Shown one piece after another: positions 1,399-64,000 of a stretch of 64,000 nucleotides of DNA; positions within the stretch are counted from its first letter, which is position 1; every line of letters begins with the position of its first letter. The position numbers and the translations under genes are program-made. Source of the DNA: Centroscyllium fabricii (lineage: Eukaryota). The notes under the pieces are model-generated. The model was not told the DNA's origin, searched no databases, and worked only from the letters and a program-made list of their open reading frames with translations. The stretch covers positions 60,698,001 through 60,762,000 of the forward strand of contig JBNRSN020000019.1 in the NCBI GenBank assembly GCA_051313645.2. Direction: 5' to 3'.

Positions 1399-3329
1399 CT
1401 ACTGGGATATTGAGTCAAGGCTAACCTTAATACAATTGTCAGTTTAGTCAGTTCAGTAAACATAAAGACATTCCAGTACATACTCATTCATATCGTTCAG
1501 AGAACTTTAATCAGTTGATAACAAGTGCAGGAAAAAATGATTTTTGCAACGGTAAACATCTGAGTTGACTGGTACAAAATGGTACTGAATCAAAGACAAA
1601 CTTATAATTAAAAGTTTCACTCCGTGGTATCGTAATTATATGTAACAAGAGAAAAACTATTGATAACAAAATAAGGGAGTCATACCGGTCTACTGAAGAA
1701 TAAATAACTTGTTAAAAGAAAAGTTATTTGTTAAGGGATGTCAATTAATGATCCTTAGATGGAGTTGTATTTTAACTTTGATATAATTATGTAATACAGA
1801 ATTATGTGGATTGTCACGTGGAGGGAGTAAGAGAAATGTATAAAAACTGCTGTTTATAATGAGTATTTGGATTTGTAAAGGCCCAAGATACTGAGCTCAG
1901 AACTGTAAACCTGATGAATCCTCAACTAACCATCATCAAGTCTGGTTGTAAGTACAGGGTATTACCTTTTAAGTGTATGTTTAAATATTATTACATGCGC
2001 TGTATACTTTATAAATTTGTGATACCTGATATTTAATGTATAAAAACCTTTTTGATTTGAGTAGCATAAGACTACCCCGGGGTGGTAGAAGGGAAACTTG
2101 ATGGATCGCAGTCTTTTTCCATGTAGCAATTCCTATGTCTGTGCAGATATCTAGAATATACTTTGTCGCACTGCAATGTCACTTCAAAGGTGGTGTATAA
2201 ATCATTCCTGTTTAGTATGACTTAACAAGTGTCAAGTACACATAGGTGACAACACTTAATATTGATTGCCTTGCTGCAGGAAGGAGACTGCGGTAACCAG
2301 CAATTGATTGACAATGCATTCGGAGTCCTGCAAGCAAGGATCTCACAGCTTGCCTTGTCCTAAAAAGAGGTGAACAGTTGTAAACATGTTTCTAGGAAAG
2401 TAGCCCGATGGTTTTGATCCCTACGGTCAGTGATAGCTGTATTTAATGCTGAATGACACCTTTTGGCAATCCTTCATCTCAGTTTAGATTTCAAAATTAA
2501 GAACAGGTAGAACAGTTGTCTGTATCTAGCATCTTGAGATTTTGGCTTCGCTAGGCTGTTGGCATATGGGGCCAGTAGCAACACTTTCTTTATGCCTCTG
2601 AGTGCTAAAGGCACTATATAGATGCAAGTTATTGCTTAAACTTCACATTACAGATATCAGCCTCAAGCACTTGGAGACATATTCACTGTTTTAGAACAGG
2701 GACTGCATTTTTAAGTAAACTTTTGTATTCTAGTAAAATTTGCCATGTTTGCTCTTCCTTCTAACAATTTTACTTTTTAACAAACCGGAGTCATAGTTTA
2801 TAACCTAAAATACAATTTGTCAGAAGGTAATTCTTCCATTTATAAAAGGGGTGGTGAAAGATGGGCAAGGTAGAATTCAGGAGAATTCCAGAGTGCAGAA
2901 AAAGATGTCTGAAAACAGTCACTGATGGTGGAATGGCAGGGCAGGGCAGGGCAGGGCGGGGTGGGGGGCAGGGCAGGGCGGGGTGGGGGGAAGGCACGAT
3001 ATGTGACAGACTAAACTCAAATGTGCAAGTGGGATCACTGGGCTGGGGGAGGTTGCAGAGGTATCCAGGACTGAGACAATGGAGGGATTTGTAACTGATT
3101 TTGAAATCTGTTGTTTTAGGTGACTGTGATGAGAATAGTCTTTTTTGGCACACCTCGCCAAGAATGTAGCATGTCTGGGAGGAGGTAGCAACTAGAGCCA
3201 AAACAGTGTACAGTATTTGTATGACCTAGGAACAACATATATTAAGGAAACTGCCCCGGTTAGACTGTCCAATGGTACCATTTACCAGATGGCCCAAATG
3301 TGCACACCACAAATTGTTGATGGGGATGT

Positions 3330-7148: not shown

Positions 7149-8458
7149 TCAGGGCAGTGTCCTAGGCCAGCGGTCCCCAACCTTTTTTGCACCACGGACC
7201 ATTTTAATGCTGGACAATTTTTCCACAGACCGGGGGGGAAGAATTAGCTTGTGGGCTTAATTCGATCAGGTCCCGTTCCACTGTCCATCCCGCCCCCAAC
7301 CCACCCCTTGCACTCACCGTCGGGGGGGCCGTCGATTGAGGACCGGCCCCGGATCTCTCCAGCTTCACTCCCAAGGCGCGGTAGACTTTCAGCCGTTTTG
7401 GGGTGCCGTCGGGGGGGCCGTTATTCTTTCTGTGCGGCCCGGTACCAAATGGTCCACGGCCCGGTGGTTGGGGACCGCTGTCCTAGGCCCAACCATCTTC
7501 AGCTGTTTCATCAATGACCTTCCCTCCATCATAAGGTCAGAAGTGGGGATGTTCGCTGATGAGTGCACACTGTTCAGCACCATTCGAGACTCGTCAGATA
7601 CTGACGCAGTCTGTGTCCATATGCAGCAAGACCTGGACAACATTCAGACGTGGGCTGACAAGTGGCAAGTAACATTTGCACCACACAAGTGCTAGGCAAT
7701 GACCATCTCCAACAAGCGAGACTCTAACCATCTCCCCTTGACATTCAATGGCATTATCATCGCTGAATCCCCCACTTTCAACATCCTGGGGGGTTACCAT
7801 TGATCAGAAACTGAACCAGCCATATAAATACTGTGGCTACAAGGGCAGGCCAGAGGCTGGGAATTCTGCGGTGAGTGTCTCACCTCCTGACTCCCCAAAG
7901 CCTTTCCACCATCTACAAGGCACAAGTCAGGAGTGTGATGGAATACTCTCCACTTGCCTGGATGAGTGCAGCTCCAACAACACTCAAGAAGCTCGACACC
8001 ATTCAGGATAAAGCAGGCCGCTTGATTGGCACTCCATCCACCACCTTCAACATTCACTCCCTCCACCACCGGCGCACTGTGGCTGCAGTGTGTACCATCT
8101 ACAAGATGCACTGCAGCAACTCGCCAAAGCTCCTTCAACAGCACCTTCCAAACCCACGACCTCTACCACTTAGAAGGACAAGGGCAGCGGACGCATGGGA
8201 ACAGCACCACCTACAAGTTCCCCTCCAAGCCACACACCATCCTGACTTGGACCTGTATCGCCACTCCTTCACTGTTGCTGGGCTAAAATCCTGGAACTCC
8301 CTTCCTAACAACATTGTGGGTGTACCTACACCATATGGACTGCAGTGGTTCAAGAAGGCGGCTCACCACCATCTTCTCAAGGGCAATTAGGGATGGGGAC
8401 TAAATGCAGGCCTAGCCAGCCAGCGACGCCCACATCCCATCAATGAATAAAAAAAAAA
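7149..8458 (+). mobile_element. 3' part of a CR1-superclade (Zenon-like) LINE
   Basis: GSVLGPTIFSCFINDL, MFADE, LSTIYKAQVRSVMEYSPLAW. Tail ...cccacatcccatcaatgaataaaaaaa. Confidence 0.85.
7168..7480. mobile_element. hAT (Charlie-like) MITE inserted in the LINE
   Basis: TIR cagcggtccccaacc...ggttggggaccgctg. Perfect TSD tcctaggc. Confidence 0.93.
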
Positions 8459-15756: not shown

Positions 15757-16157
15757 AGAAACATAGAAACCAGGAGCAGGAGTAGGCCATTCGGCCCTTC
15801 GAGCCTGCTCCGCCATTCAACGAGATCATGGCTGTTCATCCAAACCCAGTACCCCGCCCCTGCCCTCTCCCCATATCCCTCGATCCCTATCGAGCCTGCA
15901 TCGACACATATCCCATCCTATCCCCGTAACCCCACATATTCAATCCCCCTAACACTGAGGGCCAATTTATCATGGCCAATCAACCTAACCCGCACATCTT
16001 TGGACTGTGGGAGGAAACCGGAGCACCCGGAGGAAACCCACGCAGACACGGGGAGAATGTGCAAATTCCACACAGATAGTACCCGAGGCTGGATTTGAAC
16101 CCGAGTCTCCAGTGCTGTGAGACAACAGTGCTAACCACTGTGCCACCGTGCCGCCCC
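15757..16157 (-). mobile_element. tRNA-derived V-SINE (HE1-like)
   Basis: Head ggcggcacggtggcacagtggttagc, V-domain tgcacattctccccgtgtctgcgtgggtttcctccggg, CR1-type tail. Confidence 0.9.
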
Positions 16158-18986: not shown

Positions 18987-20653
18987 TATTCAATATTATA
19001 TATTCCATTACCTATCTGTTATTAACTTTTATCCCTCATCAGTTTTAAAGCTGAGAATACTCATGATATGCAAAATGGGCCAGTAGGTGCTAGATATTTA
19101 GGCCCCAAAATTGCTGGGTTGGGGGGGGGGGGGGGGGGGAGGGTGCAAGTTGGCAATTACGCCTCTGCAGGGCCAGGAATTTCTGATAAATCTGATGCAT
19201 TCCGGGGTTCTGCTGCAGAAGCACCTGGTACAAACCCATTCAGTTTCTGGGTGTGCTAAAGAAGTATCCTCCCTCACAATGGCAGGTACTGTAAATGTAA
19301 ATGACAGCCATCACCTGCCCTAAATTCCGGCTTTCACTCTCTGAACAGTCATTCATACAAAAAAAAATTGGTCCCCTCAGTCATCAAGAACTCACTGCAT
19401 CAAATAAGATGATACTTTGGCTGTGCTCTTAGATGTTGAAGGGCAAACATCCGATGGGGGTGACCATTCACCCATTCCATCATTCACCCTCTCTCCTCAG
19501 CAGCTCATAGACATACACTCAAGAGGATACAGGTAATGTAGATGAGGAATTGACAAGTTCTGAGACACAGAGGACAAGAAGGCAGAGGACACATATGTGG
19601 AAGTAGTCTGATTTAATTGAGCGGAGGCATAAGATGCATCAGCCTCTGGCTGAAGAGCAAGTGGATGATGACCTCAAGAGTCCTCTGAAACGAAGAATGC
19701 TGGGCGAGCATCGGACATGTAGAAGTTTTGTGCAGACTCTCCCAAGGTGTGCAGAAAATGACTGGGATAGTGGAGGAGTCGGCTGCCCTGTTATGTAGCA
19801 GCATTCAACATACTCCAGGAAAGCCTGGTGAAAGTGGCAGCTCCAGGAGCATCTGCAGATCTTCCCCTACTTCATTTGATCCAAGATCCAGGCAAGTCAG
19901 TCAACTCAATGTGGAGGCACTGAGTGAACAACTGCAGGTCTTGGGAAACCATCTGGAGAGACCATTGTTTCCTCGTCACATGCTGTTTAATTCCAGATTT
20001 TGGCATGTCCTCTACAAGTGGCCTGCCATTATATGCGGTCTTCTGCAGGAGGAATGAATAGCGTTAACTGGCTGCTACAGTCTCCAGATCCTGCATTTAT
20101 AATCACCTCAGGGTAATATTGGAATGGACAGTAAATGCTGGCCTTGCCAGCAACGCCCATATCACATGAACAAATACAATAAATAATGGTAAGGGAGCAA
20201 GGAATTGTTTACCATGATTCCTCATGTATTCTGTAACTGCCAGCTTAGTAAATTAAAATCATAAACGTTCATCTCAAATACAAATTATATTGAGGACGAT
20301 TCCTGATTTGTTCTAGTGATTTTGCTATGACAACCACCAATATCTGCTCCTCCATTCAGAAATAGGGCTGTCGGTTCTCAATTGAATGATCCAGCACAGA
20401 AGGAGATCATTCGGCCTATCGTACCTATGCTCTCCTTTTGTTCCATTCCCCTGCAATTTTTCCCCTTTCAAGCAATTATCCAATTCCCTTTTGAAAGTTA
20501 TTATTGAATCTGCTTCCACCACCCTTTCAGGCAGTGGATTCCAGATGATTAACAACTCACTGCTTAAAAAAAAATCTCCTCATCTCGTCTCTGGTTCTTT
20601 TGCCAATTACCTTAAATCTGTGTCCTCTGGTTTGTGTCAGCTGTGGCTCAGTT

Positions 20654-21146
20654 TTTTTTAATTCATTGATGGGATGTGGGCGGCGCTGGCTGGCTAGGCC
20701 TGCATTTAGTGCCCATCCCTAATTGCCCTTGAGAAGATGGTGGTGAGCCGCCTTCTTGAACCGCTGCAGTCTTATTGTTTTTTGTAGCGGTTGTTTACAA
20801 CTGAATGGCTTGCTAGGCCATTTCAGAGGGCATTAAGAGTCAACCACATTGCTGTGGGTCTGGAGTCACATGTAGGCCAGACCAGGTAAGGACGGCAGAT
20901 TTCCTTCCCTAAAGGACATTAGTGAACCAGATGGGTTTTTGCAACAGTCGACAATGGTATCATGGTCGCCATTACTAAGACTAACATTTCATTCCAGAAT
21001 TAAATTGAATTGAATTAAAATTCCACCAGCTGCCATAGAAACATAGAAGAAACATAGGTGGGATTTGAACCCATATCCTCAGTGCATTTGACTGAGCCTC
21101 TGGCTTACTAGTCTAGTGACATAACCACTACGCCACCGCCTCCCCC
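20654..21146 (-). mobile_element. tRNA-headed SINE with Zenon-like LINE tail
   Basis: Head ggggaggcggtggcgtagtgg (A box) ... ggttcaaatccc (B box). The 3' end is nearly identical to the LINE tail at about 8338-8458. Inserted in the head of a Deu-SINE. Confidence 0.85.
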
Positions 21147-21336
21147 AAGTTGGTAGCACACTCGCCTCGGAGTCAGAAGGTTGTGGGTTCAAGTCCAGGG
21201 ACTTGTGCACATAAGTCTGGCCTACATGTGACTCCAGACCCACAGCAATGTGGTTGACTCTTAATGCCCTCTGAAATGGCCTAGCAAGCCATTCAGTTGT
21301 AAACAACCGCTACAAAAAACAATAAGACTGCACATA

Positions 21337-22767
21337 AAGGGTAGTAGGGACAAACCGGGCAACTACAGGCCAATCAGTCTTACATCTGTAGTGGGGAAAG
21401 TAATGGAAAAAATTCTGAGGGATAAAATCAGTTCGCATTTGGACAACCAAGGTCTAATAAGAGACAGTCAGCATGGCTTCGTCAAAGGTAAGTCGTGCCT
21501 GACCAATCTGTTGGAATTCTTTGAGGAAGTAACAAAGAGGGTGGATGAAGGGAGTACTGTGGACGTAGTATATATGGACTTTAGCAAAGCTTTTGATAAA
21601 GTCCCACATAGGAGACTAATAACAAAGGTTAGAGCGCACGGGATACAGGGTAACTTGGCACAGTGGATCGAAAATTGGCTGGGGGATAGGAGACAAAGGG
21701 TAATGGTAGAGGGCTGCTTCTGTGACTGGAAACCAGTAACCAGTGGCGTCCCCCAAGGATCGGTTTTGGGACCCTTACTGTTTCTAGTATACATCAACGA
21801 TTTGGATATGGGAGTAGGGGGTACGATCAGCAAATTCGCTGATGATACGAAAATCGGAAGGGTGGTAAACAACGATGAGGATAGTAAGGGGCTTCAGGAG
21901 GATATAGATATAATGGTAAATTGGGCAGAAAAATGGCAAATGGAGTTCAACCCAGAGAAATGCGAGGTCATTCAATTCGGTAGACCAAATGGGGTAAGGG
22001 AATATACCATGAACAACAAAACGTTAAATAGGACCGAGGAGCAGAGGGACCTGGGGGTACAGGTGCACAGCTCCCTGAAGGTTGCTGGACACGTTAACAA
22101 GGTGGTTAAGAAGGCATACGGAATTCTCGCCTTTATTAACCAGGGCATAGTATACAAAAGTAGGGAGGTAATGTTAAACCTGTATAACACACTGGTGAGA
22201 CCTCAGCTGGAGTACTGTGTGCAGTTCTGGTCACCGCACTACAGGAAGGATGTGGCTGCCCTGGAGAGGGTGCAGAGAAGGTTTACCAGGATGATACCTG
22301 GTCTGGCGGACCTATGCTACGAGGAAAGGCTGGACAGGCTGGGGTTGTTTGCCTTGGAGAAAAGAAGGTGGAGGGGTGACATGATTGAGGTGTACAAGAT
22401 CATGAGGGGACACGATAGGGTAGACAAAGGGGCATTGTTTCCCCTGGTGGGAGAGTCAAGCACCAGGGGACATAGATTCAAGATCAGGGGGGGGAGGTTT
22501 AGGGGGGAGGTAAGGAGAAATTTCTTTACCCAGAGGGTGGTGGAAGACTGGAACTCCCTGCCTGTGAGGGTGGTGGAGGCAGGAACCATCACAACATTTA
22601 AAAAATACTTGGACCAGCACATGAAGGACCATAACATACAGGGTTATGGGCCAGGTGCGGGCAACTGGGGTTAGTACAGGGAGGAGTTTTCCTGGGCCGG
22701 TGCGGACTGGATGGGCCGAATGGCCCTTATCCGCACTGTAAAATTTCTATGATTCTATGATTCTATG
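21337..22767 (+). mobile_element. 5'-truncated CR1 LINE with an uninterrupted RT frame
   Basis: ORF 21391-22674 contains QHGF, DFSKAFD, GVPQGSVLGP and FADD. Tail (ttctatga)x3. Confidence 0.95.
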
Positions 22768-24475: not shown

Positions 24476-24477
24476 AT

Positions 24478-25890
24478 GGACAAAGAAGCTGAATTCCAGA
24501 GGTGAAATGAGAGTGACTGCCCTTGACATCAAGGCAGCACTTGACTGAGTGTGGCATCAAGGAGCCCAAGTAAAACACGAAAGTCAATGGGAATCGGGGG
24601 GGTAAACTCTCCACTGGCTAGCACAAAGAAAGATGGTTGTGGTGGTTGAAGGGCAATCATCACAGCCCCAGGACATCACTGCAGGAGTTCCTCAGAGCAG
24701 TGTCCTAGGCCCAACCATCTTCAGCTGTGAGGAGAAATTTCTTCACCCAGAGAGTGGTGAACCTGTGGAGTTCTCTACCACAGAAGGCAGTAGTAGCCAA
24801 TTCATTAAATATATTCAAGAAGGAGTTGGATATATTTCTTAAGGCTAAAGGGATCAAGGGATATGGGGAGAAGGCAGGGACAGGGTACTGAATTTGGCTG
24901 ATCAGCCATGATCGCATTGAATGGCAGAGCAGGCTCGAGGGTCTGAATGGCCTCCTCCTGCTCCTATCTTCTATGTTTCTATGTTTCATCATAAGGTCAG
25001 AAGTGGGGATGTTCGCTGATGACTGCACTGGAGTGTCAGCCTAGCTTTATGTGCACTCTTCAGATAATGAAGCAGTCCATGTCAGCATGCAGCAAGACCT
25101 GGACGACATTCAGGCTTGGCCTGATAAGTGGCAGGTAACATTCACGCCAGGCAATGACTATCTCCAACAAGCGAGTGGCTAACCACCACCCCTTGACGTT
25201 CAATGGCAGTACCATCACCGAATCCCCCACACCATGAATATCCTGGGGGGTCACCATTGACGAGAAACGTAACTGGACCAGCCACATAAATACTTTAGCA
25301 ACAAGAGTAGGTCAGAGTCTGGGTATTCTGTGGCGAGTGTCTCACCTCCTGACTCCCCAAAGGCTTTCCACCATCTACAAGGCACACGTCAGGAGTGTGA
25401 TGGAATACTCTCCATTTACCTGGATGAGGTGCAGCTCTAACAACACTCAAGAAGCTTGATACCAATCAAGGCGAAGCAGCCCGCTTGATTGGCACCCCAT
25501 CCACCACCTTAAACATTCACTCCCTCCACCACCGGCGTACCGTGACTGCAGTGTGTACCATCTACAAGATGCACTGCAGCAACTCGCCACGGCTTCTTCA
25601 GCAGCACCTGCCAAACCCGTGACCTCTACAACCTGGAAGGACAAGGGCAGCAGGCGCATGGGAAAACCATCACCTCCAAGTTCCCTTCCAAGTCACAAAT
25701 CATCCTGACTTGGAACTCCTACATCACTGCTCGGTCAAAATCTTGGAACGCCCTCCCTAACAGCACTGTGGGAGCACCTTCACCACACGAACTGCAGCGG
25801 TTCAAGGTGGCGGCTCACCACCACCTTCTCAAGGGCAACTAGGTATGGACAATAAATGCTGGCCTTGTCATATCCCATGAACGAATAAAA
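24478..25890 (+). mobile_element. Zenon-like LINE fragment, interrupted by a CR1 3' end (about 24728-24985)
   Basis: AGVPQSSVLGPTIFSC, gttcgctgatga, and the same 3' tail as 8338-8458. Confidence 0.8.
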
Positions 25891-35281: not shown

Positions 35282-38200
35282 TTAACTTCGTGCTGGGACT
35301 AGGGTCCTGGCAAATCATATAACTAGGGCAATAGAGAGGTCTTTAAACTAAGTAGCGGGGGGGAGGATTCAAGAGAGATAATAACGACAGGGGTAAAGGA
35401 AATAGAGCAGGGTTTCAGTGGGGAATCTGAAAATCAAAGTGTGCTAGGAGGATACAGAATGTATGAAGATAAAGGTAGAGTCGTAAAAGGAGTAAAAACA
35501 GAAATAAAGGGTAGTAAAACACATGTGAAAGTGCTTTATCTGAATGCACGTAGTATTCGCAATAAGATAGATGAATTGACGGTACAATTAAGCACATATA
35601 GGTATGATATTGTGGCCATTACAGAAACATGGCTGCAAGGTGATCAGGACTGGGAGTTAAACATAGAGGGTTACTTGACAATCAGAAAAGACAGACAGGA
35701 AAGAAAAGGAGGTGGGGTGGCCTTTTTAATAAAGGATGGAATAACTGCAATAGAAAGGAAGGATATTGGGTCAAATGATCAGGATAGTGAAACAGCTTGG
35801 GTACAGATAGAGAATAATAAGGGGAAAAAAACACTAGTGGGTGTAATCTATAGACCTCCCAATAGTTGTGACTCTGTTGGTCAGAACATAAATCAGCAAA
35901 TAGTTGAAGCATGTAATAAGGGAACTGCTGTAATCATGGGGGACTTTAACTTTCATATCAACTGGACAAATCAGACTGGGCAGGGTAGGCTAGAGGAACA
36001 GTTTATAGAGTGTATTAGGGATGGGTTCTTAGAACAGTATGTCACTGAACCGACAAGGGGGGAGGCAATCTTGGATCTGGTCCTGTGTAATGAAGCAGGA
36101 TTAATTAAAAATGTCATAGTTAGGGACCCTCTTGGAACGAGTGACCACAATATGGTTGAATTCCATATTCAACTAGAGGGGGAGCAATTTGAAACTCAAA
36201 CCAGGGTACTTAGTCTAAACAAGGGAGACTATGAAGGTATGAGAACAGAACTGATTAAAGTAGATTGGGATAACGGACTAAAGAATAAGACGGTACATGA
36301 GCAGTGGCGTACTTTTAAGGAGTTAGTGTACAACCTTCAAGAAAAATACATTCCACTGAAGAAAAAAAGGGGTAATAGAAAGGGCAGCCAACCATGGCTA
36401 AGTAAAGTAATAAAGGATAGTATTCGGCTAAAGGCGAGGGCATATAAGGTAGCCAGATACAGTGGGAAGACAGAAGACTGGGAAGCATTTAAAAGTCAGC
36501 AAAAAATAACAAAGAGATTAATTAAGAAGGGGAAAATAGATTATGAAAGTAACTTAGCGAAAAACATAAAAACTAATAGCAAGAGTTTTTATAGTTATAT
36601 AAAAAGAAAAAGGGTGGCTAAGGTGAATGTTGGTCCATTGGAGGGTGAGACTGGGAAGTTGTTGGTGGGGAACATGGAGATGGCAAAAGCATTAAATGAA
36701 TATTTTGTATCAGTCTTTACCGTAGAAGACATTAAAAATATTCCAACGCTGGATAAACAGGGGGCTATAGGAATGGAGGAGCTAAACACTATTAAGATCA
36801 CTAAGGAGATGGTATTAGGTAAATTAATGGGACTTAAGGCGGATAAATCCCCTGGGCCTGATGGATTACATCCTAGGGTCTTGAGAGAAATAGCGGTGGG
36901 GATTGTGGATGCATTGGTGATAATTTTCCAAAACTCCCTGGAGTCAGGAAGGGTCCCGGTGGATTGGAAAATGGCTAATGTAACACCTATATTTAAAAAG
37001 GGAAGTAGACAGAAGGCTGGTAACTATAGACCGGTTAGTCTAACATCTGTGGTGGGTAAAATGTTAGAGACCATTATTAAAGAAACACTGACGGGGCACT
37101 TGGATAAACATGACTTAATCGGACAGAGTCAGCATGGTTTTACGAAGGGGAAGTCATGTTTAACTAATTTGCTCGAATTCTTTGAGGAAGTAACATCTCG
37201 GGTGGATAAAGGGGAACCGGTGGATGTGGTATACTTGGACTTCCAAAAGGCTTTTGACAAGGTGCCACATAAGAGACTATTGCATAAAATAAAAAATTAT
37301 GGGATTGGGGGAAATATATTAGCATGGGTAGAGGATTGGCTTTCAAACAGGAAGCAGAGAGTTGGGATAAATGGTTCATACTCGGGATGGCAATCGGTGA
37401 CTAGCGGTGTTCCGCAGGGGTCGGTGCTGGGACCCCAGCTGTTTACAATCTATATAAATGATTTGGAGGAGGGGGCCAAGTGTAATATATCAAAGTTTGC
37501 AGATGACACAAAAATGGGAGGAAAAGCAGGGAGTGAGGAGGACAGAAAAAGCCTGCAAAAGGATATAGATAAGCTAGGTGATTGGGCAGCAATTTGGCAG
37601 ATGAAATTTAATACTGATAAATGTGAAGTTATACACTTTGGAAAAAAAAATCATAGGGCAAGTTATTTTCTAAATGGGGAGGAGCTGCATTGTAATACAA
37701 CGCAAAGAGACCTGGGGGTATTAGTGCATGAATCACAAAAAGTTAGTATGCAGGTGCAGCAAGTGATTAGGAAGGCCAATGGAGTCTTAGCCTTTATTGC
37801 TAGGGGGATAGAGTATAAAAGCAGGGAGGTCTTGCTGCAGCTGTACACAGTATTGGTGAGACCGCATTTGGAATATTGTGTGCAGTTTTGGTGTCCATAC
37901 TTAAGAAAGGATGTACTTGCCCTGGAGGCAGTGCAGAGAAGGTTTACACGGTTAATTCCAGCGATGAGGGGGTTGACATATGAGGAAAGGTTAATAAGTA
38001 GGTTGGGACTCTACTCTTTAGAGTTCAGAAGAATGAGAGGCGATCTTATTGAAACGTATAAGATCGTGAGGGGCCTTGATCGGGTGGATGCGCCAAGGAT
38101 GTTTCCAATGATCGGGGAGACTAGAACTAGGAGGCATAGTCTTAGAATAAGGGGGGGCTCTTTTAAAACTGAGATGAGGAGAAACTTCTTCACCCAGAGG

Positions 38201-38751
38201 ATGGTTAATCTGTGGAATTCACTGCCTCAGGGAGCTGTGGAAGCGGGAACATTAAATAAATTTAAAACCGAAATAGACTGTTTTTTAGCTGACAAGGGAA
38301 TTAGGGGTTACGGGGAGCGGGCAGGGAAGTGGACCTGAGTTATGGTTAGTATAGTAAGACCTGAGTGATCTCCTGGACAAGTTTCGATCGCCTGGATTGG
38401 GGTCGGAGAGGAATTTCCCGGATTTTTTTCCCAAATTGGACCTGGGTTTTTATCCGGTTTTTCGCCTCTCCCAGGAGATCACACGGTTCTTTGGGTGGGA
38501 GAAGGGTGATAGTGGTACGAAGGTTAGGGTAGGATCAGCAATGATCTTGATGGGTGAGGGGGCGGGCTTGGGGGGCCGATTGGCCTACTCCTGCTCCTAT
38601 TTATGGGGTTCTTGTGTTCTTGTGTTCCTGTGTTCTTGTGTCTTCTGTTCTTGTGTCCCTGTGTTCAGCCATGAACGTATTGAATGGCGGTGCGGGCTCG
38701 ACGGACCGAATGGTCTTCTCCTGCACCTATTTTCTATGACTCTATGACTCT
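35282..38751 (+). mobile_element. CR1 LINE: end of ORF1, complete ORF2 and composite 3' UTR
   Basis: ORF1-like C-terminus AGTRVLANHITRAIERSLN*, then ORF2, then a (tctatgac)n tail. Confidence 0.95.
35441..38338 (+). CDS. CR1 ORF2: APE endonuclease + reverse transcriptase, uninterrupted 965 aa
   Basis: YLNARS, ITETW, GDFN, SDH (APE); KSPGPDG, QHGF, GVPQGSVLGP, FADD (RT). First ATG at 35459. Confidence 0.95.
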   Translation: MLGGYRMYEDKGRVVKGVKTEIKGSKTHVKVLYLNARSIRNKIDELTVQLSTYRYDIVAITETWLQGDQDWELNIEGYLTIRKDRQERKGGGVAFLIKDGITAIERKDIGSNDQDSETAWVQIENNKGKKTLVGVIYRPPNSCDSVGQNINQQIVEACNKGTAVIMGDFNFHINWTNQTGQGRLEEQFIECIRDGFLEQYVTEPTRGEAILDLVLCNEAGLIKNVIVRDPLGTSDHNMVEFHIQLEGEQFETQTRVLSLNKGDYEGMRTELIKVDWDNGLKNKTVHEQWRTFKELVYNLQEKYIPLKKKRGNRKGSQPWLSKVIKDSIRLKARAYKVARYSGKTEDWEAFKSQQKITKRLIKKGKIDYESNLAKNIKTNSKSFYSYIKRKRVAKVNVGPLEGETGKLLVGNMEMAKALNEYFVSVFTVEDIKNIPTLDKQGAIGMEELNTIKITKEMVLGKLMGLKADKSPGPDGLHPRVLREIAVGIVDALVIIFQNSLESGRVPVDWKMANVTPIFKKGSRQKAGNYRPVSLTSVVGKMLETIIKETLTGHLDKHDLIGQSQHGFTKGKSCLTNLLEFFEEVTSRVDKGEPVDVVYLDFQKAFDKVPHKRLLHKIKNYGIGGNILAWVEDWLSNRKQRVGINGSYSGWQSVTSGVPQGSVLGPQLFTIYINDLEEGAKCNISKFADDTKMGGKAGSEEDRKSLQKDIDKLGDWAAIWQMKFNTDKCEVIHFGKKNHRASYFLNGEELHCNTTQRDLGVLVHESQKVSMQVQQVIRKANGVLAFIARGIEYKSREVLLQLYTVLVRPHLEYCVQFWCPYLRKDVLALEAVQRRFTRLIPAMRGLTYEERLISRLGLYSLEFRRMRGDLIETYKIVRGLDRVDAPRMFPMIGETRTRRHSLRIRGGSFKTEMRRNFFTQRMVNLWNSLPQGAVEAGTLNKFKTEIDCFLADKGIRGYGERAGKWT

Positions 38752-46839: not shown

Positions 46840-48050
46840 TTTTATTCATTCTTGGGATATGTGGGTCAAACCCAGTTTATAATTTATTACCCACCCCTAG
46901 GTGTCCGCGAGAAGGTGGTGATCAGTCTTCTTGAACTGTTGCAGTTCATGGGGCGAAGGTATTAGGTACAGAGTTCCAGGAAAATGGTCAGCGGCGATAA
47001 AGGAACAGCGATGTATGTTCAAGTCAGGATGATGTGTGACTTGGAGAGGATGGTGTTCCCATGCACCTGTTGCCCTTGCCCTTCTAGGTGGTGGAGCTTG
47101 TGAGTTTGGGAGGTGTTGTCAAAGAAGCCTTAGCGAGTTGTTGCAGTGCATTTTATGGATAGTACACGCTGCAGCCACGGGGGAGGGAGTGGATATTTAA
47201 GGTGGCAAATGGGCTGCCGATCAAATGGGCTGCTTTGTCCTGGATGGTGTCGAGCTTCTTGAGCGTTGTTGCAGCTGCACCCATCCAAGCAAGTGGAGGG
47301 TATTCCATCACACTCTTGACTTGTACCTTGTAGGTAGTCGAGAGGTTTTGGGGAGTCAGGAGGTAAGCCATTTGCTGCAGAATACGTAGACTCTGATCTG
47401 TTCTATAACCATGACATTTTGTGGCTGGTCCAGTTAAGTTTCTGGTCAATGGCAACCCCCAGGATATTGATGTTGGGTGATTTGGCGATGGTAATGTTGT
47501 TTAAGGTGGATAGGCTCTCTTGTAGACTCTCTCTTGTTGAAAACGGTCATTACCTGGCATTTGTGTGGTGTGAATTTTACTTGCAACTTATTACTCGAAG
47601 CCTGGCTGTTGTCCAGGTTTTGTTGCGGGCATGGACTACTTCATTATCTGAGGAATTTTCTGACCTTATGATGGAAGGAATGTCATTGATGAGTAGCTGA
47701 AGATAGATGGGCCTAAAATGCTGCCGAGTAACTCCTGCAGCAATGTCCTGGGTTTGATATAATTGGCCTCCAACAACTGTCTTCCTTTGTGCTCGGCATG
47801 ACTCCAGCCAGTGGAGAGTTTTCTCACTGATCCCACTGACTTCAGTTTTATTGGGGCTCCTTGGTGCCACACTCGGTTGAATGCTGCCTTGATACCAAGG
47901 GCAGTCTCACCTCATCTCTGGAATTCAGTTTTGTCCATGTTCGAACCAAGGCTGTAATGAGGTCTGGAGCCAAGTGGTCTGGCAGAACCCAAACTAAGCA
48001 CTGGTGGAGCTTTTTGGTGAATAAGTGCCGCTTGATAGTACTGTTGATGA
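46840..48050 (-). mobile_element. Zenon-like LINE fragment
   Basis: LSTTYKVQVKSVMEYPPLAWMGAAATTLKKLDTIQ and LGPSIFS. Confidence 0.8.
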
Positions 48051-48153
48051 CTCCTTTGCATAGCAATACTGTTGCAATTTCATACAATAGTAAAAGTCAC
48101 CTGCAAGTTAAATCTGTTTGATTTTTGCCCATGTATACCTGTCTATATAATGA

Positions 48154-51834: not shown

Positions 51835-52718
51835 TCAGAAGTGGAGATGTTCGCTGATAATTGCACACTGTTCAGCACCATTCGAGACTCGTCAGATACG
51901 GACGCAGTCCGTGTCCATATGCAGCAAGACCTGGACAACATTCAGACTTGAGCTGACAAGTGGCAAGTAACAGTCGCACCACACAAGTGCCAGGCAATGA
52001 CCATCTCCAACAAGCGAGACTCTAACCATCTCCCCTTGACATTCAATGGCATCATCATCGCTGAATCCCCCACTATCAACATCCTGGGGGGTTACCATTG
52101 ATCAGAAACTGAACTGGACCAGCCATATAAATACTGTGGCTACAAGAGCAGGCCAGAGGCTGGGAATTCTGTGACGAATGTCTCACCTCCTGACTCCCCA
52201 AAGCCTTTCCACCATTTACAAGGCACAAGTCAGGAGTGTGATGGAATACTCTCCATTTGCCTGGATGAGTGCAGCTCCAACAACACTCAAGAAGCTCGAA
52301 ACCATTCAGGATAAAACAGGCCGCTTGATTGGCACTCCATCCACCACCTTCAACATTCACTCCCTCCACCACCGGCGCACTGTGGCTGCAGTGTGTACCA
52401 TCTACAAGATGCACTGCAGCAACTCGCCAAAGCTCCTTCAACAGCACCTTCCAGACCCGCGACCTCTACCACTTAGAAGGACAAGGGCAGCAGACGCATG
52501 GGAACAGCACCACCCACAAGTTCCCCTCCAAGCCACACACCATCCTGACTTGGACCTGTATCGCCGCTCCTTCACTGTCACTGGGGCAAAATCCTGGAAC
52601 TCCCTTCCCAACAACATTGTGGGTGTACCTGCACCATATGGACTGCAGCGGTTCAAGGAGGCGGCTCACCACCATCTTCTCAAGGGTAATTAGAGATGGG
52701 CACTAAATGAAGGCCTAA
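51835..52718 (+). mobile_element. Zenon-like LINE 3' fragment (close to the 7536-8415 copy)
   Basis: Near-identical 171-aa C-terminal ORF. Confidence 0.88.
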
Positions 52719-54620: not shown

Positions 54621-55355
54621 AATTCAATTCAATTCAAGTTTTATTGTCATTGCAGAGTACTAGTACAATACAACGAGACGAAGACTTGACTCTCCTGAGA
54701 GTATGCAAATAAAAATAAATAAATTACATGCAAAATGCATACAGTAAAGTACATTATCAGGCGTGCAGGTACCGGAGTTTATTTTTAGAGTTCAGGAGGC
54801 TGACAGCCCTGGGGAAGAAGCTGTTCTGAAATCTAGTCGTGCGGGTGCAAATTGCTCTGTAGCGTCTCCCGGAGGGCAGGGGGCGAACAGACTGTGGCTG
54901 GGGTGTGTGGGGTCTTTAATAATGTTCATAGACCTCCGTAGGCAGCGTTTGAGGTAGATGCTTTCCATTGACGGTAGCTGGGTACCGGTGATTCGTTGGG
55001 CAGTTTTGACTACCCGCTGCAGGGTTTTCCGGTCCGAGATAGTGCAATTACCATACCAGACAGTGATGCAGCTTGTCAGTATGCTTTCTATTGTGCAGCG
55101 GTAGAAGTTGGAGAGGATGCCGGATGACAGCCTGGCTTTCTTCAGCTTCCTTAGGAAGTACAGGCGCTGTTGGGCCTTCTTAACCAGAGAGGAGGTGTTT
55201 AGTGACCAGGAGAGATCTTCTGAGACGTGGACCCCGAGGAACTTGAAGCTGGACACCCTTTCCACCTCAGCCCCTTGGATGAAGATGGGGGTGTGTCTTC
55301 TGCTTCCAGTCCTCCGGAAGTCCACTATGATCTCCTTGGTTTTCTTGGTGTTCTT
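54621..55355 (-). mobile_element. Rex1/Babar LINE 3' fragment
   Basis: VDFRR...VERVSSFKFLGV...KKAQQRLYFLRKL...FYRCTIESILTSCITVWYGNC, with a tail gacaataaaacttgaattgaattg. Confidence 0.9.
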
Positions 55356-55557
55356 GGAAACAATCCACCAATTATCTTACCATAACCTTTCATGAAGACC
55401 TCTATCTGGTCACTACCTTAACCTCCTCATCTATAATGAAAAATCCTCATTTTTGAAGTCTCACTTCATTGTTAACACCACACCCTTGATGATATCTATG
55501 ATGTGGAGGTGCCGGTGTTGGACTGGGGTGGACAAATGTAAGAAGTCACACAACACC

Positions 55558-55876: not shown

Positions 55877-56531
55877 AACACCAGGTTATAGTCCAACAGT
55901 TTTATTTGAAATCACAAGCTTTCGGAGCACTGCTCCTTCGTCAGGTGAAGTGAAGAGATGCACATAGGCACAGCATATATAGTCAGAAAACAATGCTAGA
56001 TGATTACAGGTAATTTTTCTAACTGCCCTTTATCACACCTCGGCAGAGTGATAATCACTGCAATCATAGGTGTAAATGGTGTCCAAACAGGTCAGTCAAC
56101 AAAATATTCCATCAAAGAAGAATGAGGTGGGGTCACAAGAGGTCAAATGTTGCACAGGCTGCATGAAAAACAAAAAACAAACAGAGCAATAAAAAATGAA
56201 ATGAAATAAAAATGTTTTGCTGGAAATCACAGCAGGTCCAGCCGCATCTGTGTAGAGAGAACAAGCCAACGACGATTCGAGTCTGGATGATTCTACGTCA
56301 GGTGGGGTTACATGTAGCGTGACATGAAGCCAAGATCCCGGTTGAGACCGTCCTCATGAGTGCGGAACATGGCTATCAGTTTCTGCTCGATAACTTTGCG
56401 TGGTCGTGTGTCTCGGAGCGGAGAAACTATGTCATGTTCTTCGCAGCCTTCAACATGTCATCGATGACGACAAACACCTCGCTAAGGCCATCCCCACGCC
56501 TCCACTACTCACCTTCAAACAGCCGCCTAAC

Positions 56532-56810
56532 ATAATAATAATAATAATTCAACTTTATTGTCATTATACAATGTACAAGTACATGAACAACGAAATGTGA
56601 TCTTGCAAGCTCCCAAGAGTCCAGCAAAGCCGCTGCGTCTGTGCGCGCCGCCATTCCATCTTTCCATCATTCCGACAATCTTCAGCCAACCGCCCCTCCC
56701 CGGGGCTCCTTTCGTGACCTTCTGCACCTGGCATTCCCTGGTGGTCGCCCCTCCAAGTACTAACCAGGCCTGGCTCTGCTTAGCTTCCAAGCCTTGCCAG
56801 TGGCCCTGTC
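56532..56810 (-). mobile_element. 5S rRNA-derived SINE (SINE3-like) with a Rex1-like tail
   Basis: Minus strand ttggaagctaagcagagccaggcctggttagtacttggaggggcgaccaccagggaatgccaggtgc resembles the 5S internal control region. Tail aatgacaataaagttgaa(tta)n. Splits the Penelope ORF at KQPPN|LKQT. Confidence 0.82.
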
Positions 56811-59354
56811 CTCAAACAGACCATCGTTCGCAGCAAATTACCCAGCTTTCAGGAGAACAGCAACCACGACACCACACAACCCTGCCACGGCAACCTCTGC
56901 AAGACATGCCAGATCATCAACACAGATACCATCATCACACATGAGGACAGCACCCACCAGGTACATGGTACATACTCATGTGACTTGGCCAATGTTGTCT
57001 ACCTGATACGTTGCAGGAAAGGATGCCCCGGAGCATGGTACATCGGCAAGACCATGCAGACACTGCGACAACGGATGAATGGACACCACACCACAATCGC
57101 CAGGCAGGAGTGTTCCCTCCCAGTCGGAGATCACTTCAGCAGTCAAGGACATTCAGCCTCCGATCTTCAGGTAAGCATTCTCGAAGGTGGCCTTCGAGAC
57201 ACACGACAACGCAAAATCGTCGAGCAGAAACTGATAGCCAAGTTCCGCACTCATGAGAACGGCCTCAAACGGGATCTTGGCTTCATGTCATTTACATGTA
57301 ACCCCACCTGACGTAGAGTCATCCAGACTCGAGTCATCGTTGGCTTGTTCTCTCTACACAGATGCGGCTGGACCTGCTGTGATTTCCAGCAAAACATTTT
57401 TATTTCATTTCATTTTTTATTGTTCTGTTTGTTTTTTGTTATTCATACAGCCTGTGCAACATTTGACCTCTTGTGGCCCCACCTCATTGTTCTTTGATGG
57501 AATGTTTTGCTGACTGACCTGTTTGGATACTATTTACACCTATGATTGCATTGGTTATCTCTCTGCCAAGGTGTGATAAAGGGCAGTTAGAAAAATGACC
57601 TGTAATCATCTAGCATTGTTTTCTGACTATATATGCTGTGCCTGTGTGCATCTCTTCACTTCACCTGACGAAGGAGCAGCGCTCCGAAAGCTTGTGATTT
57701 CAAATAAAACTGTTGGACTATAACCTGGTGTTGTGTGACTTTTTACATTTGATAATATCTGCAGCTTTGCAATTGCTTTTGATCCTTTTGCCTGAATAAA
57801 ACATTTTAAAAGTAAAAGGAAACTATTAGAATATATTTCTGGAACATATTGATGCCAACAATTCTTAATAACGCAGTAACAGTTTCAGGAAGGAGACGAC
57901 CGTTGGTCCATCCAGCCCACCTAGCCATAGTATTTCTTTGGCACATTTCTAATAACCCTGAAACTTATTTGTTGACAAGAACCTGGTTATAGTAACTAAG
58001 ATTATATGTGGATGCTTGGTCAAAGATTCTTTTCTGTAAATCACAGTCAACTATACATTTACTCGGGCCTGGACTAATAATCCAAAGACTGAGTTCAAAT
58101 CCCACCACGATAGTTTGCGAATTTGAAATCAGCTTAAAAAAAACCAATTAAGAATAAAAAGCCAGTATCAGTAGTAGTGACCATGAAGCTATCAGACTGT
58201 CAGAAAAACCCATCTGGCTCACTAATGTCCTTCAGGGAATAATCCTGCTGTCCTTACCCAGATTGGCCAAAATGTGCCTCCAGACCCCCATCCTCTGAAA
58301 TGGCCTAGCAAGCCACTCTGTTGTATCAAACCGCTACAAAGTAGCATAATACCAATAAAACTGGACAGACCAATCAGCTTCAACCTAGGCATCGGATTTG
58401 GGTGTGACAAAGGCATACCCAGCCCAGTCGACCCTGAAAAGTCCTTCTCTCTCACATCTGGGGACTTGTCCAAAAATTGGGAGAGCTGTCCCACAGGCAA
58501 ATCAAGCAACAGCTTGACATAGTCATACTCAGATTATTCAGAATCATACCTATCAGCCGACATCCCTGATTCCTCCATCGCCATCCCTTGCCAGAGGTAG
58601 CAGCACAGTGATATACAGTCGGGACGGAGTGACCCTGGGAGTCCTCAACATTGACTCTGGATGCCATGATATCACATGGCTTCAGGTCAGGCATGGGCAA
58701 GGAAACCTCCTGCTGATTACCACCTACCGCCCTCCCTGATGAATCAGTACCCCTCCATGTTGAACACCACTTGGAAGAAGCACGGAGGGTAGCAAGGGCA
58801 CACAATGTACTCTGGCTGGGGGTACTCCATTGTCCATCACTGAGAGTGGCTTGGCAGTACAACCACTGACCCTGAAGGACATAGCTGCCAGACTGGGCTT
58901 ACAACATGTGGAGAGAGAATCAACATGAGCTAAAAACCTACTTGACCTCGTCATAGAGTCATACGGCACAGAAGGCGGCCATTCAAACCATCGAGTCCAT
59001 GCCGGCTCTCTGTAGAGCAATCCAGTCAGTCCCATTCTCCTGCTCTATCCCCGGAGCCCTGCAAGTTTATTTCACTCAAGTGCCTATCCAGTCTCCCCTT
59101 GAAAACATTGAGTGTCTCCGCTTCCACCACTTCCATCAGCAGCGAAAATCCAGGTCCTCACCACTCACTGTGTCACATCCCACCTGTATCTCTTACCCAA
59201 AACCTTAAATCTGTGTCCTCTAATCCTTGTACCATCAACTAGTGGGAACAGCCTTTTCACGTCTAGCCTATCCAAACCTATCATAATCTTGTACACCTCT
59301 ATCAAATCCCCCCTCAACCTCCCCAAACAGTCCTCCCCAATCTGCCTGTTTCAC

Positions 59355-59755
59355 GAAACACAGAAACATAGAAGATAGGAGCAGGAGTAGGCCATTCGGC
59401 CCTTCGAGCCTGCTCTGCCATTCAATGAGATCATGGCTGATCATCCAAACCCAGCACCCCGACCCTGCCTTGTCCCCATATCCCTCGATCCCTATCGAGC
59501 CTGCACCGACACATATCCCACCCTATCCCGGCAACACCACACATTCAATCTCCCTAACACTAAGGGTCAATTTATCCTGGCCAATCAACCTAACCCGCAC
59601 ATCTTTGGACTGTGGGAGGAAACCGGAGCACCCGGAGGAAACCGACGCAGACACGGGGAGAATGTGCAAACTCCACACAGATAGTACCCGAGGCTGGATT
59701 TGAACCCGGGTCTCTAGTGCTGTAAGGCAACAGTGCTAACCACTATGCCACCACC
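59355..59755 (-). mobile_element. V-SINE (HE1-like)
   Basis: Same family as 15757-16157. Confidence 0.9.
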
Positions 59756-59894
59756 ACCGAAAGCATTGGTAGGAGTGACCACCGCACAGTCCTTGTGGAG
59801 ATGAAAGACCAGTCTTCACATTGAAGACACCCTCCATCGTATTGTAAGGTACTACGTGCTAAATGGGATAGATTAAGAACTGGAATTCTCTGCC

Positions 59895-60357
59895 CCACTA
59901 GGTTGATTCCAGTGATGAGGGGGTTTGACTTATGAAGAAAGGTTGAGCAGGTTGGGCCTATACTCATTGGAATTTAGAAGAATGAGAGGTGATCTTACTG
60001 AAATATAAGATACTGAGGGGGCTCGACAAGGTAGATGCAGAGGATGTTTCCCCCTGTGGGGAAATCTAGAACTCGGGGGCATAGTTTCAGATTAAAGGGT
60101 CGCCCTTTTAGTACTGAGATGAGGTGGAATTTCTTCTCTCAGAGGGTTGTAAATCTGTGGAATTCTCTGCCCCAGAGAGCTGTGGAGGCTGGGTCATTAA
60201 ATACATTTAAGGTGGAGATAGACAGATTTTTGCAAGATAAGGGAGTAAAGGGTTATGGAGATTGGGCAGGGAAGTGGCTCTGAGCCCAAGATCAGCCATG
60301 ATCTTATTGGCTCAAGGGGCCAAGTGGCCTATGCCTGTTCCTATTTCTTATGTTCTT
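59895..60357 (+). mobile_element. CR1 3' end
   Basis: TRGHSFRLKG...NFFSQRVVNLWNSLP and a ttcttatg tail. Confidence 0.88.
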
Positions 60358-60470
60358 AGATCCGAGATCTCAAAACTGGGCATCCATGAGGCACTGTAGG
60401 CTTATCAGCAGCAGCAGCACAATTGTATTCTACCACAATAGATTGGACTAGCATATCCCTCACTCTACTA

Positions 60471-61172
60471 CAGGTTGTGCACCGAAAATCCGTGACCCGA
60501 AATGCCGGCAGCTTCAGTCTGCCGGAACAAATTGCCCCGACTGCACTGCGCATGCGCAAGATGGCAGCTGCGATCGTGGCTTCAGCGAATGATCTGCGCA
60601 TGCGCCGCCGAATGGCGAGCGCATGCGCAGAGCATTCAAAATGGCTGCCGGGTGTTTTGAATGATCTGCGCATGTGTCGCATGCGCAGATCATTCAAAAC
60701 AGCCACCGGACGAGCCGGGCCTTCCGTGGCGTCAGGGCGCGGCAGCTCGACTACCATCCCTGAAACCCTTAAATGAAGGGGAACGGAGGTGAAGATGCAC
60801 AAATGCCCACAGCCAAAGGAACCGACAGTTAAGGGACAGAAGTGGGTGGTTGTGGGGTTGGTGGAGATTACCGAGATAGGGAGGGGTGAGCCCGAAGAGA
60901 TTTATACACCGAGGTTAGAATTTTAAGTGTGAGCATTGGGGAACTTGGTGCCAATGCAGGTCAGCGATGGACAAACAAGGATGCAAACAGCAGAGTTCTG
61001 GATGAGATGATCTAATATTTTGAATGTTCGGCGGCCATTTCCAATGTGCGCATGCGCGCGGCCATTTTGAATGGTGCGCGCATGCGCACTGACCGACTTC
61101 ATTCTGCCGGTTTTTTCACTTTCCCGGCACGGGCCTGGTCCCGCCCGTGCCGAATTTCCGGTGTGCAACCTG
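60471..61172. mobile_element. pogo/Tigger-like MITE (same family as the element ending at 788)
   Basis: ta|caggttgtgcaccgaaaat ... atttccggtgtgcaacctg|ta, inserted in the LINE ORF. Confidence 0.88.
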
Positions 61173-64000
61173 TATTACTATCAAGCTAGGCGACCAACCC
61201 TGGTACAATGAGGAGTGTAGAAGCTCATGCCAGGAGCAACTCCAGGCATACCTAAAAATGAGGTGCCAATCTGGGGAAGCTGCAACACAGGACAGAGCTA
61301 AGCAATTCCACAACCAACAGATCAGATCAAAGCTCTGCAGTCCTGCCACATCCAATCGTAAATGGCAGTAGACAATTAAACAACTAAGGGGAGGAGGAGG
61401 CTCGGTGAACATCCCCATCTTCAATGATGGTGGAGCCTAGTATACGAGTGTAAAAGACAAGGCTGAAGCATTTTCAACCATCTTCAGCCAGAAATGCTGA
61501 GTGGATGATCCACCTTGGCTTCTTGATGAGGTCCCTACTATCACAGATACCAGTCTTCAGCCAATTCGATTCACTTGACAAAATGCTATGGACTCTGTCG
61601 ACAGCCCAGCTGTAGTGCTGAAGAGTACATGCACCAAAACTAGCCACGCCTCTAGCCAAGCTGTTCCAGTACAGTTACAATACTGGCATCTACCTGACAA
61701 AGTGGAAAATTGCTCAGGTATGTCCTGTCCACAAGAAGCAGGGCAAATCCAATCTGGCCAATTACCGCCCCATCACCCTACTCCCAATCATCAGCAAAAT
61801 GATGGAAGGTGCTGTCAATAGTGATATCAAGCAGCACTTACTCACCAACAACCTGCTCACTGATGCTTAGTTTGCATTCTACCAGGACCACTCGGCTCCA
61901 GACCTTGTTACAGCCTTGGTCCAAACAGGAACAAAAAGAGCAGAATTCCAGGTGTGAGTGGAGAGTGACTGAAATCAAGGCAAAATTTGACCGAGTGTGG
62001 CATCAAGGAACCCTAGTAAAACTGAAGTCAATGGGAATCAGTGGGAAAACTCTCCACTGGCTGGAGTCATACCTAGCACAAAAGGAAGATGGTTGCGGTT
62101 GTTGGAGGCTGATCATCTCAGCCCCAGGACATCACTGCAGGAGTTACTCAGGGCTGTGTCCTCGGCCCAATCATCTTCAGCTACTTCATCAATGACGCTC
62201 CCTCTTTCATAAAAGGTCAGAAGTGGGGATGTTCACTGATGATTGCACAGTGTTCAGTTCCATTCGCAATTCCTCAGATAACAAAGCACTCCGTGCCCAC
62301 ATGCAGCAAGATCTGTGGCACGTAACATCTGCGATACACATGTGCCAGACAATGACTATCTCCAACAAGAGAGAGTCTATCAACCTCCTCCTGACATCCA
62401 ATGGCATTAGCATCATCGAATTCCCCATCATTAACACTGTCAGGGTCACCATTGACCAGAAACTTAACTGGACGAGCCACATCAATACTGTGGCTACAAG
62501 AGCAGGTCAGAGGCTGGGTATTCTGTGGTGAGTGACTCATCTCCTGACTCCCCAAAGCCTTTCCACCATCTACAAGGCACAAGTAAGGAGTATGATGGAA
62601 TATTCACCACTTGTCTGGACGTGTGCAGCCTCAACAACACTAAAGAAGCTCGACACCACCCAGGACAAAGCAATCCACTTGATCGGCATCCTATCCACCA
62701 CCTTAAACATATAATCCCTCCACCACCGGTGCACCGTGGCTACAGCGTGTACCATCTACAAGATACACTGTAGCAACTCATCAAGGCTTCTTCGATAGCA
62801 CCTCCCAAACCCGCAACCTCTACCATCTACAAAGACATGGGGAGTAGCTGCATAGGAACACCAAACTCTCCAAGTTCCCCTCCAAGTGAATCATCCTGGC
62901 CTGGACATATATTGCTGTTCCTTTATTGTCACTGGATCAAAATCCTGGAACTCTCTACCTAACAGCACTGTGGGAGTACCTTCACCACTCACACTGAAGC
63001 GGTCCAAGGTGGCAGCTCATCACCACCTCCTCAAGCGTAACCGGGGATGGGCAATAAATGCTGGCCTTGCCAGCGACGACCACATTCCGTGAATAAAAGA
63101 TAAAAATTTAATTCCAAAGAAAGTGCAATGCTTCACAATATATTTGAGGTGGTAGAGGTCACAGGTTTGGGAGGTGCTATCGAATAAGCCTTGGTGAGTT
63201 GCTGCAGTGCAACTTGTAGATGGTTCACGCTGCAGCCATGGTGAGCCGGTGGTGGAGGGAGTGCCTGTTAAAAGATTCACAGAATAATTTCTAGTCCGTA
63301 CCATCATCCAGCAAAGGGTCTGGATCTGGTAGGGGAGAAAAAGAGGATGGAGAGAAAAAAGAAATCAGAGGGATGGTCAGCTTCCTGGTGGCTGGCTACA
63401 GGGAACACTGAAAGCAAGCTGTGTGCCTATCCTTTTGGCTGCAGATATCAAATGAGGCAAAGAACAGGGAATAAAACATGAATAAAAATGGTACCATCAT
63501 AAACCTTTAAATATTTTTCTCCATTACCCAGCACGGAGTATGAAGATGGTAAATATAATTGCTTACTTGGGCAGAGTTGATCAGACTCAGCTTAACAAAG
63601 TTCACTTAATAAAAAAGCCAGGATTCCATAATGCATCCCTTATAAATTAAAACATGCTTCCAATCTAAATGGGTAAACTAAAAATGTTAGTCTAGATCAA
63701 TTTTTGCAACATGAAATGGTATTTCTTCCTTTCCACACTGCAGTTAAGTAACTTGATAAAATTAAGTCTGTGAATAGAGTCTTCACTGCAGCAAAATATA
63801 GCTTTAATAATTGCAAATATCAAAATAAATGTCAGCTACTGATTTGCTCATCTTTAAAACTGATACCACTGTTGAACTTTATATCCGGCTAGATACACAA
63901 TTCTGATAAACATTTTAGTGGACTCCTCAAACAAGTACTACAAGAGATCTTCAGCACATCTCGGAGTATTTCCTAAATGAACAAGTCAGACTAGTTTAAT

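Follow-up and report, generated by a model that had tools for sequence, protein, structure and literature searches.

A tRNA-headed Zenon LINE in the genome of Centroscyllium fabricii and the case for its transcription by RNA polymerase III

The stretch of Centroscyllium fabricii DNA analysed here (64,000 nucleotides of contig JBNRSN020000019.1, hereafter the window) contains a decayed long interspersed nuclear element (LINE) with a tRNA-like 5′ head. It is a dead, interrupted copy of the Zenon LINE, an abundant elasmobranch element. In the 7.2 Gb host genome the head, a non-coding body, an open reading frame (ORF) for an APE endonuclease and a reverse transcriptase (RT), and the tail move as one unit, and intact young copies exist. 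LINEs are usually coding and transcribed by RNA polymerase II (Pol II), short interspersed nuclear elements (SINEs) non-coding and dependent on RNA polymerase III (Pol III) for their transcription. Sequence features described below make it likely that Pol III transcribes this LINE.

Head, body, reading frame and tail as one mobile unit

Full-length consensuses, which the first-pass annotation of the window had proposed to reconstruct, were built for two subfamilies: an older one of 3.3 kb (majority consensus of 21 older copies, the window copy among them) and a young one of 3,316 nt, ~90% identical to each other. The link between head and ORF held whichever part of the element served as query. 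With the APE alone, 30 loci were taken from 40 scored; 28 of the 29 non-self loci continued into the 5′ body and 21 reached the head. Four of these 21 had common flanks by alignment and two more the same upstream pattern, and since at least six look like duplicates of one insertion, about 16 are independent. With the RT-linker protein we found the young subfamily: 20 long-frame matches were taken from this search, and 11 of the 150 scored matches had open frames of 970–976 aa. These full-frame copies were 98–99% identical to the young consensus and all carried the head, ten from position 1–5 and one from position 17. When 29 loci were taken from this search without selection, seven reached position 1 and the others were truncated or interrupted at scattered points, and no different 5′ end was common to them. 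Loci found with the head alone ran into the ORF (28 of 30) or into the tail (2 of 30).

Of 13 full-length copies with a head, nine had flanks that rejoined to one continuous other repeat (offset between about −5 and +11 nt), indicating that these copies were inserted as one piece from head to tail. An exact 23-mer spanning the join of body and ORF had 2,057 matches in the genome (control 0), and the window alone holds five copies, the main one included; the five fragments and the abundance claimed at first are both upheld. The flanks were unrelated between loci and often lay within other repeats. Insertion at or beside tRNA genes, the habit of the tRNA-gene-targeting LINEs Dewa and TRE, was not seen in them. 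Target-site duplications were short in the young copies, or replaced by small deletions, and none was convincing in 15 older copies. Two young full-length copies (L116, L126) lay inside older copies of their own family, and at L004, L006, L007 and L011 one old Zenon insertion had been multiplied along with the sequence on either side of it, carried by a larger repeat or duplication. A further locus contained an LTR-retrotransposon-like region (L065:80-3734) with a 728-aa RT/RNase H/integrase-like frame.

The single frame of the intact copies (n = 11) starts at ~position 332 and encodes the Pfam domains APE and RVT_1 (one intact copy); the element ends in a short tail with poly(A). Between the subfamilies the ratio of nonsynonymous to synonymous divergence (dN/dS) is ~0.20, which indicates purifying selection on the ORF within the head-bearing lineages. 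Pieces of it also occur in several annotated shark proteins of public databases (P0001, P0002, P0004, P0010, P0012, P0018), probably as gene-model contamination.

The intact head consists, in order, of leading Gs, an A box ~10 nt in, a Thr(AGU) anticodon-type loop, a hairpin insert of 20 nt and the B box. Five leading Gs, counted in a check for an extra G derived from a cap, were present in 15 of 36 copies, most of them found with a query that itself has five. Alignment of the head to a host tRNA-type gene gave scores of 53 and 51, with shuffle means of 18 and 17 and none of 1000 shuffles reaching the observed values. This alignment and the A and B boxes point to a tRNA origin. Neither ARAGORN nor Rfam called the head a tRNA, and ARAGORN gave no call for two host tRNA-type loci, whose Thr(AGU) label was taken from the anticodon loop, the canonical spacing and the near-identical repeated copies. 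Both boxes are kept and the spacer between them has diverged. The inserted hairpin shows two-sided changes at three of its four pairs between the subfamilies, within a single divergence, and overall the covariation is not supportive; older SINE-like and LINE-like copies with an insert-free head also exist (10 loci). The body of ~145 nt differs between the subfamily consensuses by one substitution and one 1-nt indel, with dS 0.22 at synonymous sites. No ribozyme or known RNA family gave a significant Rfam match in the 5′ region.

Internal deletions that keep both LINE ends yield abundant SINEs. One of them lies in the window (Table 1), with 92–97% identity to the young subfamily and a short microhomology at its join. 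The first-pass annotation had the window's LINE spawning this SINE; descent from the family holds, with the young subfamily as the source and not the older lineage of the window copy. Its junction pattern had 7,624 exact genome-wide matches, in SINE form only, compared with 2,057 for the LINE 5′ junction. Further SINE junctions were found at about 346/3169, 351/3195, 309/3221, 335/3240 and 335/3203. Several different junctions show that SINEs were born from the Zenon LINE lineage more than once.

Terminator avoidance, translation and competing explanations

The first-pass annotation had pointed to a possible sense-strand depletion of TTTT, and TTTT is indeed absent from both consensuses. A deficit also appeared for minimal Pol III terminators, defined as TTTT or TVTTT (PMC8466645). 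Their sense-strand number was 1 in the young and 0 in the older consensus, compared with 8.4 and 7.2 expected from base shuffles (P ≤ 0.002) and with 5.1 and 3.4 from codon shuffles of the ORF (P about 0.01); the antisense strands had 21 and 23. Runs of TTT showed a clearer shortage than TTTT: the two consensuses had 7 and 5, with 15.1 and 11.1 expected (P = 0.001 and 0.007). Two controls from the same genome showed no significant deficit of minimal terminators: a Rex1-like LINE had 5 (expected 5.3 by base, 7.6 by codon shuffle) and a CR1-like LINE 17 (12.6 and 17.8), with TTT runs of 13 vs 17.1 (P = 0.06) and 34 vs 40.1 (P = 0.04), respectively. In ten metagenomic relatives, minimal terminators were near or above expectation, and the observed/expected ratio for TTTT was 0.57–2.66 in 32 of 32 relatives, compared with 0 in the element studied here. 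The 11 intact natural copies carried one to three minimal terminators each. The terminator deficit is strand-specific and goes beyond the same-genome and family controls, and this avoidance gives good indirect support to Pol III transcription of the Zenon LINE, although no proof.

We lean slightly towards a reading in which Pol III transcribes the full element and the same RNA is translated independently of cap and AUG. Pol III would initiate ~10 nt upstream of the A box, read through 3.3 kb and end in the flank, as on SINEs. This one RNA would be both mRNA and template. Uncapped and with no in-frame AUG, it would be translated from a non-AUG start or after a shift out of an overlapping frame upstream, probably aided by the near-invariant 145-nt body. 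Target-primed reverse transcription by the APE and RT would follow, beginning at the 3′ tail, as established for this class. A codon ~85 nt upstream, in another frame, is ATG in 15, ATA in 8 and ATT in 2 of the 25 older copies; all 52 young matches have ATA there, and these counts include some loci taken twice. In most relatives inspected, a Met stands shortly before the same APE motif.

Several observations weigh against this reading. The TTT deficit had already been noticed when the wider definition of a terminator was brought in, and the absence of TTTT alone is weak, with P = 0.12 (older) and 0.04 (young) in the codon shuffle and P = 0.21 under a first-order Markov model. The young consensus retains one TGTTT, and the two subfamilies, given their similarity, are not independent tests. 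The Rex1-like control is itself T-poor: its 2.7 kb hold only 2 TTTT, and its TTT runs are mildly short. On the side of translation, the intact copies have no in-frame ATG upstream of the APE, the first in-frame Met falls at residue 209 or later in 10 of the 11 intact frames, and the first 33 open codons evolve neutrally (dN/dS 0.85). The body fold has z = −2.0 and no net covariation support.

Pol III might instead make only the template RNA, the protein being supplied in trans from occasional capped Pol II read-through of copies within host transcription units; the full-length element would then behave as a giant SINE that happens to carry an ORF. Such an arrangement would account for the promoter, the precise 5′ end and the terminator avoidance without uncapped translation, and the excess of SINE junctions over LINE 5′ junctions implies that mobilisation in trans is efficient. 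The purifying selection on the ORF is easier to understand, however, if the RNA encodes its own copying protein, and the missing in-frame AUG is a problem for a capped RNA too. We consider this arrangement possible but rather improbable. A Pol II element with a captured head is, in our view, unlikely. Here a Zenon ancestor would have gained a SINE 5′ end by template switch, with Pol II activity within or overlapping the head, the A and B boxes being relics or kept by exchange with SINEs and the T-poverty an ordinary LINE strand bias, as the T-poor Rex1-like control might suggest. LINEs are regarded as Pol II units in the account of Kojima (PMC5786205), and some Pol III promoters recruit Pol II. 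Against this stand the retention of both boxes while the spacer between them diverges, a 5′ end at SINE-like distance from the A box, and a terminator deficit confined to one strand and larger than in any of the controls.

The old, heavily interrupted window copy, from which the A box is absent, could also have suggested that a SINE or tRNA gene merely came to lie upstream of a truncated LINE, or that the LINE was inserted beside a tRNA gene. This is refuted by the recurrence of the same join in dozens of loci with unrelated flanks, in the 2,057 exact junction matches and in the listed consensuses of five other species, by flanks that rejoin as empty sites, and by a head that differs from real tRNA genes by the 20-nt hairpin insert and other changes.

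Taken as a whole, the proposal describes an autonomous, recently active vertebrate element with a tRNA promoter, a 3.3-kb Pol III RNA, an uncapped and AUG-less mRNA for a 970-aa enzyme and a conserved 5′ RNA element, which would be LINE and SINE master at once and found SINE families by single deletions; for this full combination we see the chances as evenly balanced. If it is true, a tRNA promoter together with a selected ORF in a successful shark and ray family would break the division between LINEs and SINEs, and the Zenon LINE would be a natural mRNA made by Pol III, a kind of transcript that is still doubted (PMC6023835). Intact young copies (e.g., L111–L121) make the questions of polymerase and start codon directly testable in cell assays.

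The window copy and its neighbours

Self-comparison and consensus alignment showed that the window LINE is a single element interrupted by four insertions. The first-pass annotation had counted these four correctly and described them as nested; they are separate insertions into the LINE, none inside another. Without them the copy measures 3,085 nt, is decayed with several frameshifts, and shows 81% identity with the older consensus and 77% with the young one. It matches the older consensus from position 45 through the tail. Because the alignment begins there, the copy starts at ~58063–58066 and has lost its A box, and its 3′ end is the A-tail at 63106; these limits replace the span 58045..63098 given at first. 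The B box of the tRNA-like head was confirmed. The proposed order of head, untranslated region (UTR), APE, RT and tail also stood, with small shifts of coordinates: the APE begins at ~58437 and not at 58455. As this is ~440 nt from the consensus 5′ end, there is no space for an ORF1, just as had been claimed.

Table 1 Features of the window LINE, its derived SINE and other Zenon copies in the window.
Feature	Position	Strand	Evidence
5′-truncated tRNA-Thr-like head, A box lost	58063..58113	+	Alignment to older consensus from position 45; full head in other copies
B box, GAGTTCAAATCC	58091..58102	+	Sequence; retained in both subfamilies
Conserved non-coding body (not Deu), deletion in window copy	58204..58326	+	Near-identity of subfamily consensuses
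APE endonuclease, first part, frameshifted	58437..58952	+	tblastn to intact protein; Pfam Exo_endo_phos on intact copy
Insert 1, CR1-like LINE 3′ fragment	58953..59331	-	Matches reverse of CR1-like copy 21337-22623
LINE remnant between inserts 1 and 2	59332..59356	+	18/20 identical to consensus
Insert 2, unrelated tRNA-headed SINE	59357..59754	-	93% match to 15757-16147; more copies at 26474, 55569
LINE ORF segment, end of APE	59755..59880	+	Consensus alignment
Insert 3, CR1-like LINE 3′ fragment	59881..60357	+	77% match to 37950-38339
LINE ORF segment	60358..60468	+	Consensus alignment
Insert 4, miniature inverted-repeat transposable element with terminal inverted repeats and TA duplication	60469..61173	.	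Ends compared
Linker, reverse transcriptase (~61631-62525), C-terminal region; frameshifts and stops	61174..63040	+	
Short 3′ UTR and A-rich tail, common to LINE and SINE	63041..63106	+	
Bipartite SINE, young positions 1-356 joined to 3198-3316, 20-nt insertion after B box	20653..21145	-	
Young 5′-truncated copy of Zenon LINE	7479..8456	+	97.7% to young consensus
Older truncated, interrupted copy of Zenon LINE	24476..25865	+	
Old truncated copy of Zenon LINE	46882..48056	-	73% to young consensus
Young truncated copy of Zenon LINE	51835..52717	+	97% to young consensus

Insert 2 is presumably V-SINE/HE1-like. About 40 nt past the tail of the window LINE, 124 nt from the interior of this LINE stand in inverted orientation (63149–63272, young positions 2906–3029). 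Adjoining the bipartite SINE, a different tRNA-like head, which we take to be SacSINE1-like, runs into Zenon body positions 244–356 (21147–21327). The long CR1-like APE-RT frame at 35525–38266 served as the CR1-like control. A Rex1-like LINE, young and abundant, is represented by its 3′ part at 54792–55376; one of its genomic copies has a 906-aa frame. The element at 56096–57513, presumably Penelope-like, has repeated ends flanking a frame (56784–57311) that resembles a GIY-YIG endonuclease.

Comparison with known systems

Stuart et al. (2026, PMC13343379) described Zenon from elasmobranchs, coelacanth and hagfish; in every case the element lacked ORF1 and ended in poly(A). Our element agrees with the published CarCar, HypSab, RhiTyp, ScyCan and SquAca Zenon consensuses in its length of ~3.3 kb, single APE-RT ORF, lack of ORF1 and poly(A). 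In Table S2 of that paper, this head opens each of the seven shark and ray consensuses, and the three from hagfish and coelacanth have no such head within their first 400 nt; this was compared by eye over the first 400 nt, where our sequence is near-identical to elasmobranch Zenon, the older subfamily being closest to SquAca_Zenon-1. The young subfamily with its intact frames is what is shown here in addition to the consensuses of that table. The head is thus present in the sequence data of PMC13343379, and the terms "tRNA", "polymerase III" and "promoter" have no occurrence in its main text. Neither our full-text literature searches, which covered sources other than Repbase, Dfam, subscription journals, bioRxiv supplements and the supplement of PMC5499810, nor the accessible text of two shark genome preprints gave a description of a tRNA-headed autonomous LINE. 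The system had been called under-described at first; as far as these sources go, this seems to hold just for the tRNA head and the question of Pol III, the Zenon family being catalogued and its lack of ORF1 already published (PMC13343379).

A quick IQ-TREE tree of 65 RT rows, with no named Zenon reference among them, placed the element and a butterfly protein in a clade of 34 rows (SH-aLRT 97) that excludes the CR1-like and Rex1-like RTs of the same genome. For invertebrate relatives, 40 of 80 metagenome loci were examined, all 40 with an ORF that is largely complete; none had a B box or similarity to the head in the 130–990 nt available upstream, on contigs some of which may end before the 5′ end is reached. 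The head therefore looks like an elasmobranch acquisition, taken perhaps from a SINE or perhaps directly from a tRNA fusion.

R2, too, is a LINE with a single ORF, which has no ordinary AUG start, and its RNA does not arise as a capped Pol II transcript. Pol I transcribes R2 together with the rDNA, and a ribozyme sets its RNA free; in the Zenon LINE the 5′ region matched no ribozyme family.

As a tRNA-headed shark repeat with a conserved body, the element resembles the DeuSINEs (SacSINE1, AmnSINE1, LmeSINE1; PMC5499810, PMC4824008, PMC7245038). A Deu/SacSINE1 identity of the body, our first label, was rejected: the body has no match in the Deu alignment as published, and none of three short Deu motifs (PMC7245038 Fig. 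S4) occurs in the young consensus, in a motif-level test and not a profile search. Two to three short body motifs were likewise absent from hagfish and bivalve SINE supplements.

With the tRNA-derived SINEs (SINE2) the Zenon LINE shares A and B boxes, a 5′ end ~10 nt before the A box, the absence of an internal terminator and a LINE-type tail. Unlike them it spans 3.3 kb and codes for an APE-RT of its own; its derivative at 20653–21145 is short and non-coding, as a SINE2 is. In keeping the two ends of an ORF1-less LINE, the derived SINEs resemble the bipartite derivatives of RTE, Ingi, Vingi and R2 listed by Kojima (2018, PMC5786205), and they differ from the cases listed there in their several junctions and in belonging to a clade outside that list. 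In that account the bipartite LINE is taken to be a Pol II unit, and a tRNA head must be added before a SINE arises. The Zenon LINE already carries the head, so that one deletion gives a SINE, and a tRNA-headed LINE offers a one-step route to SINE birth.

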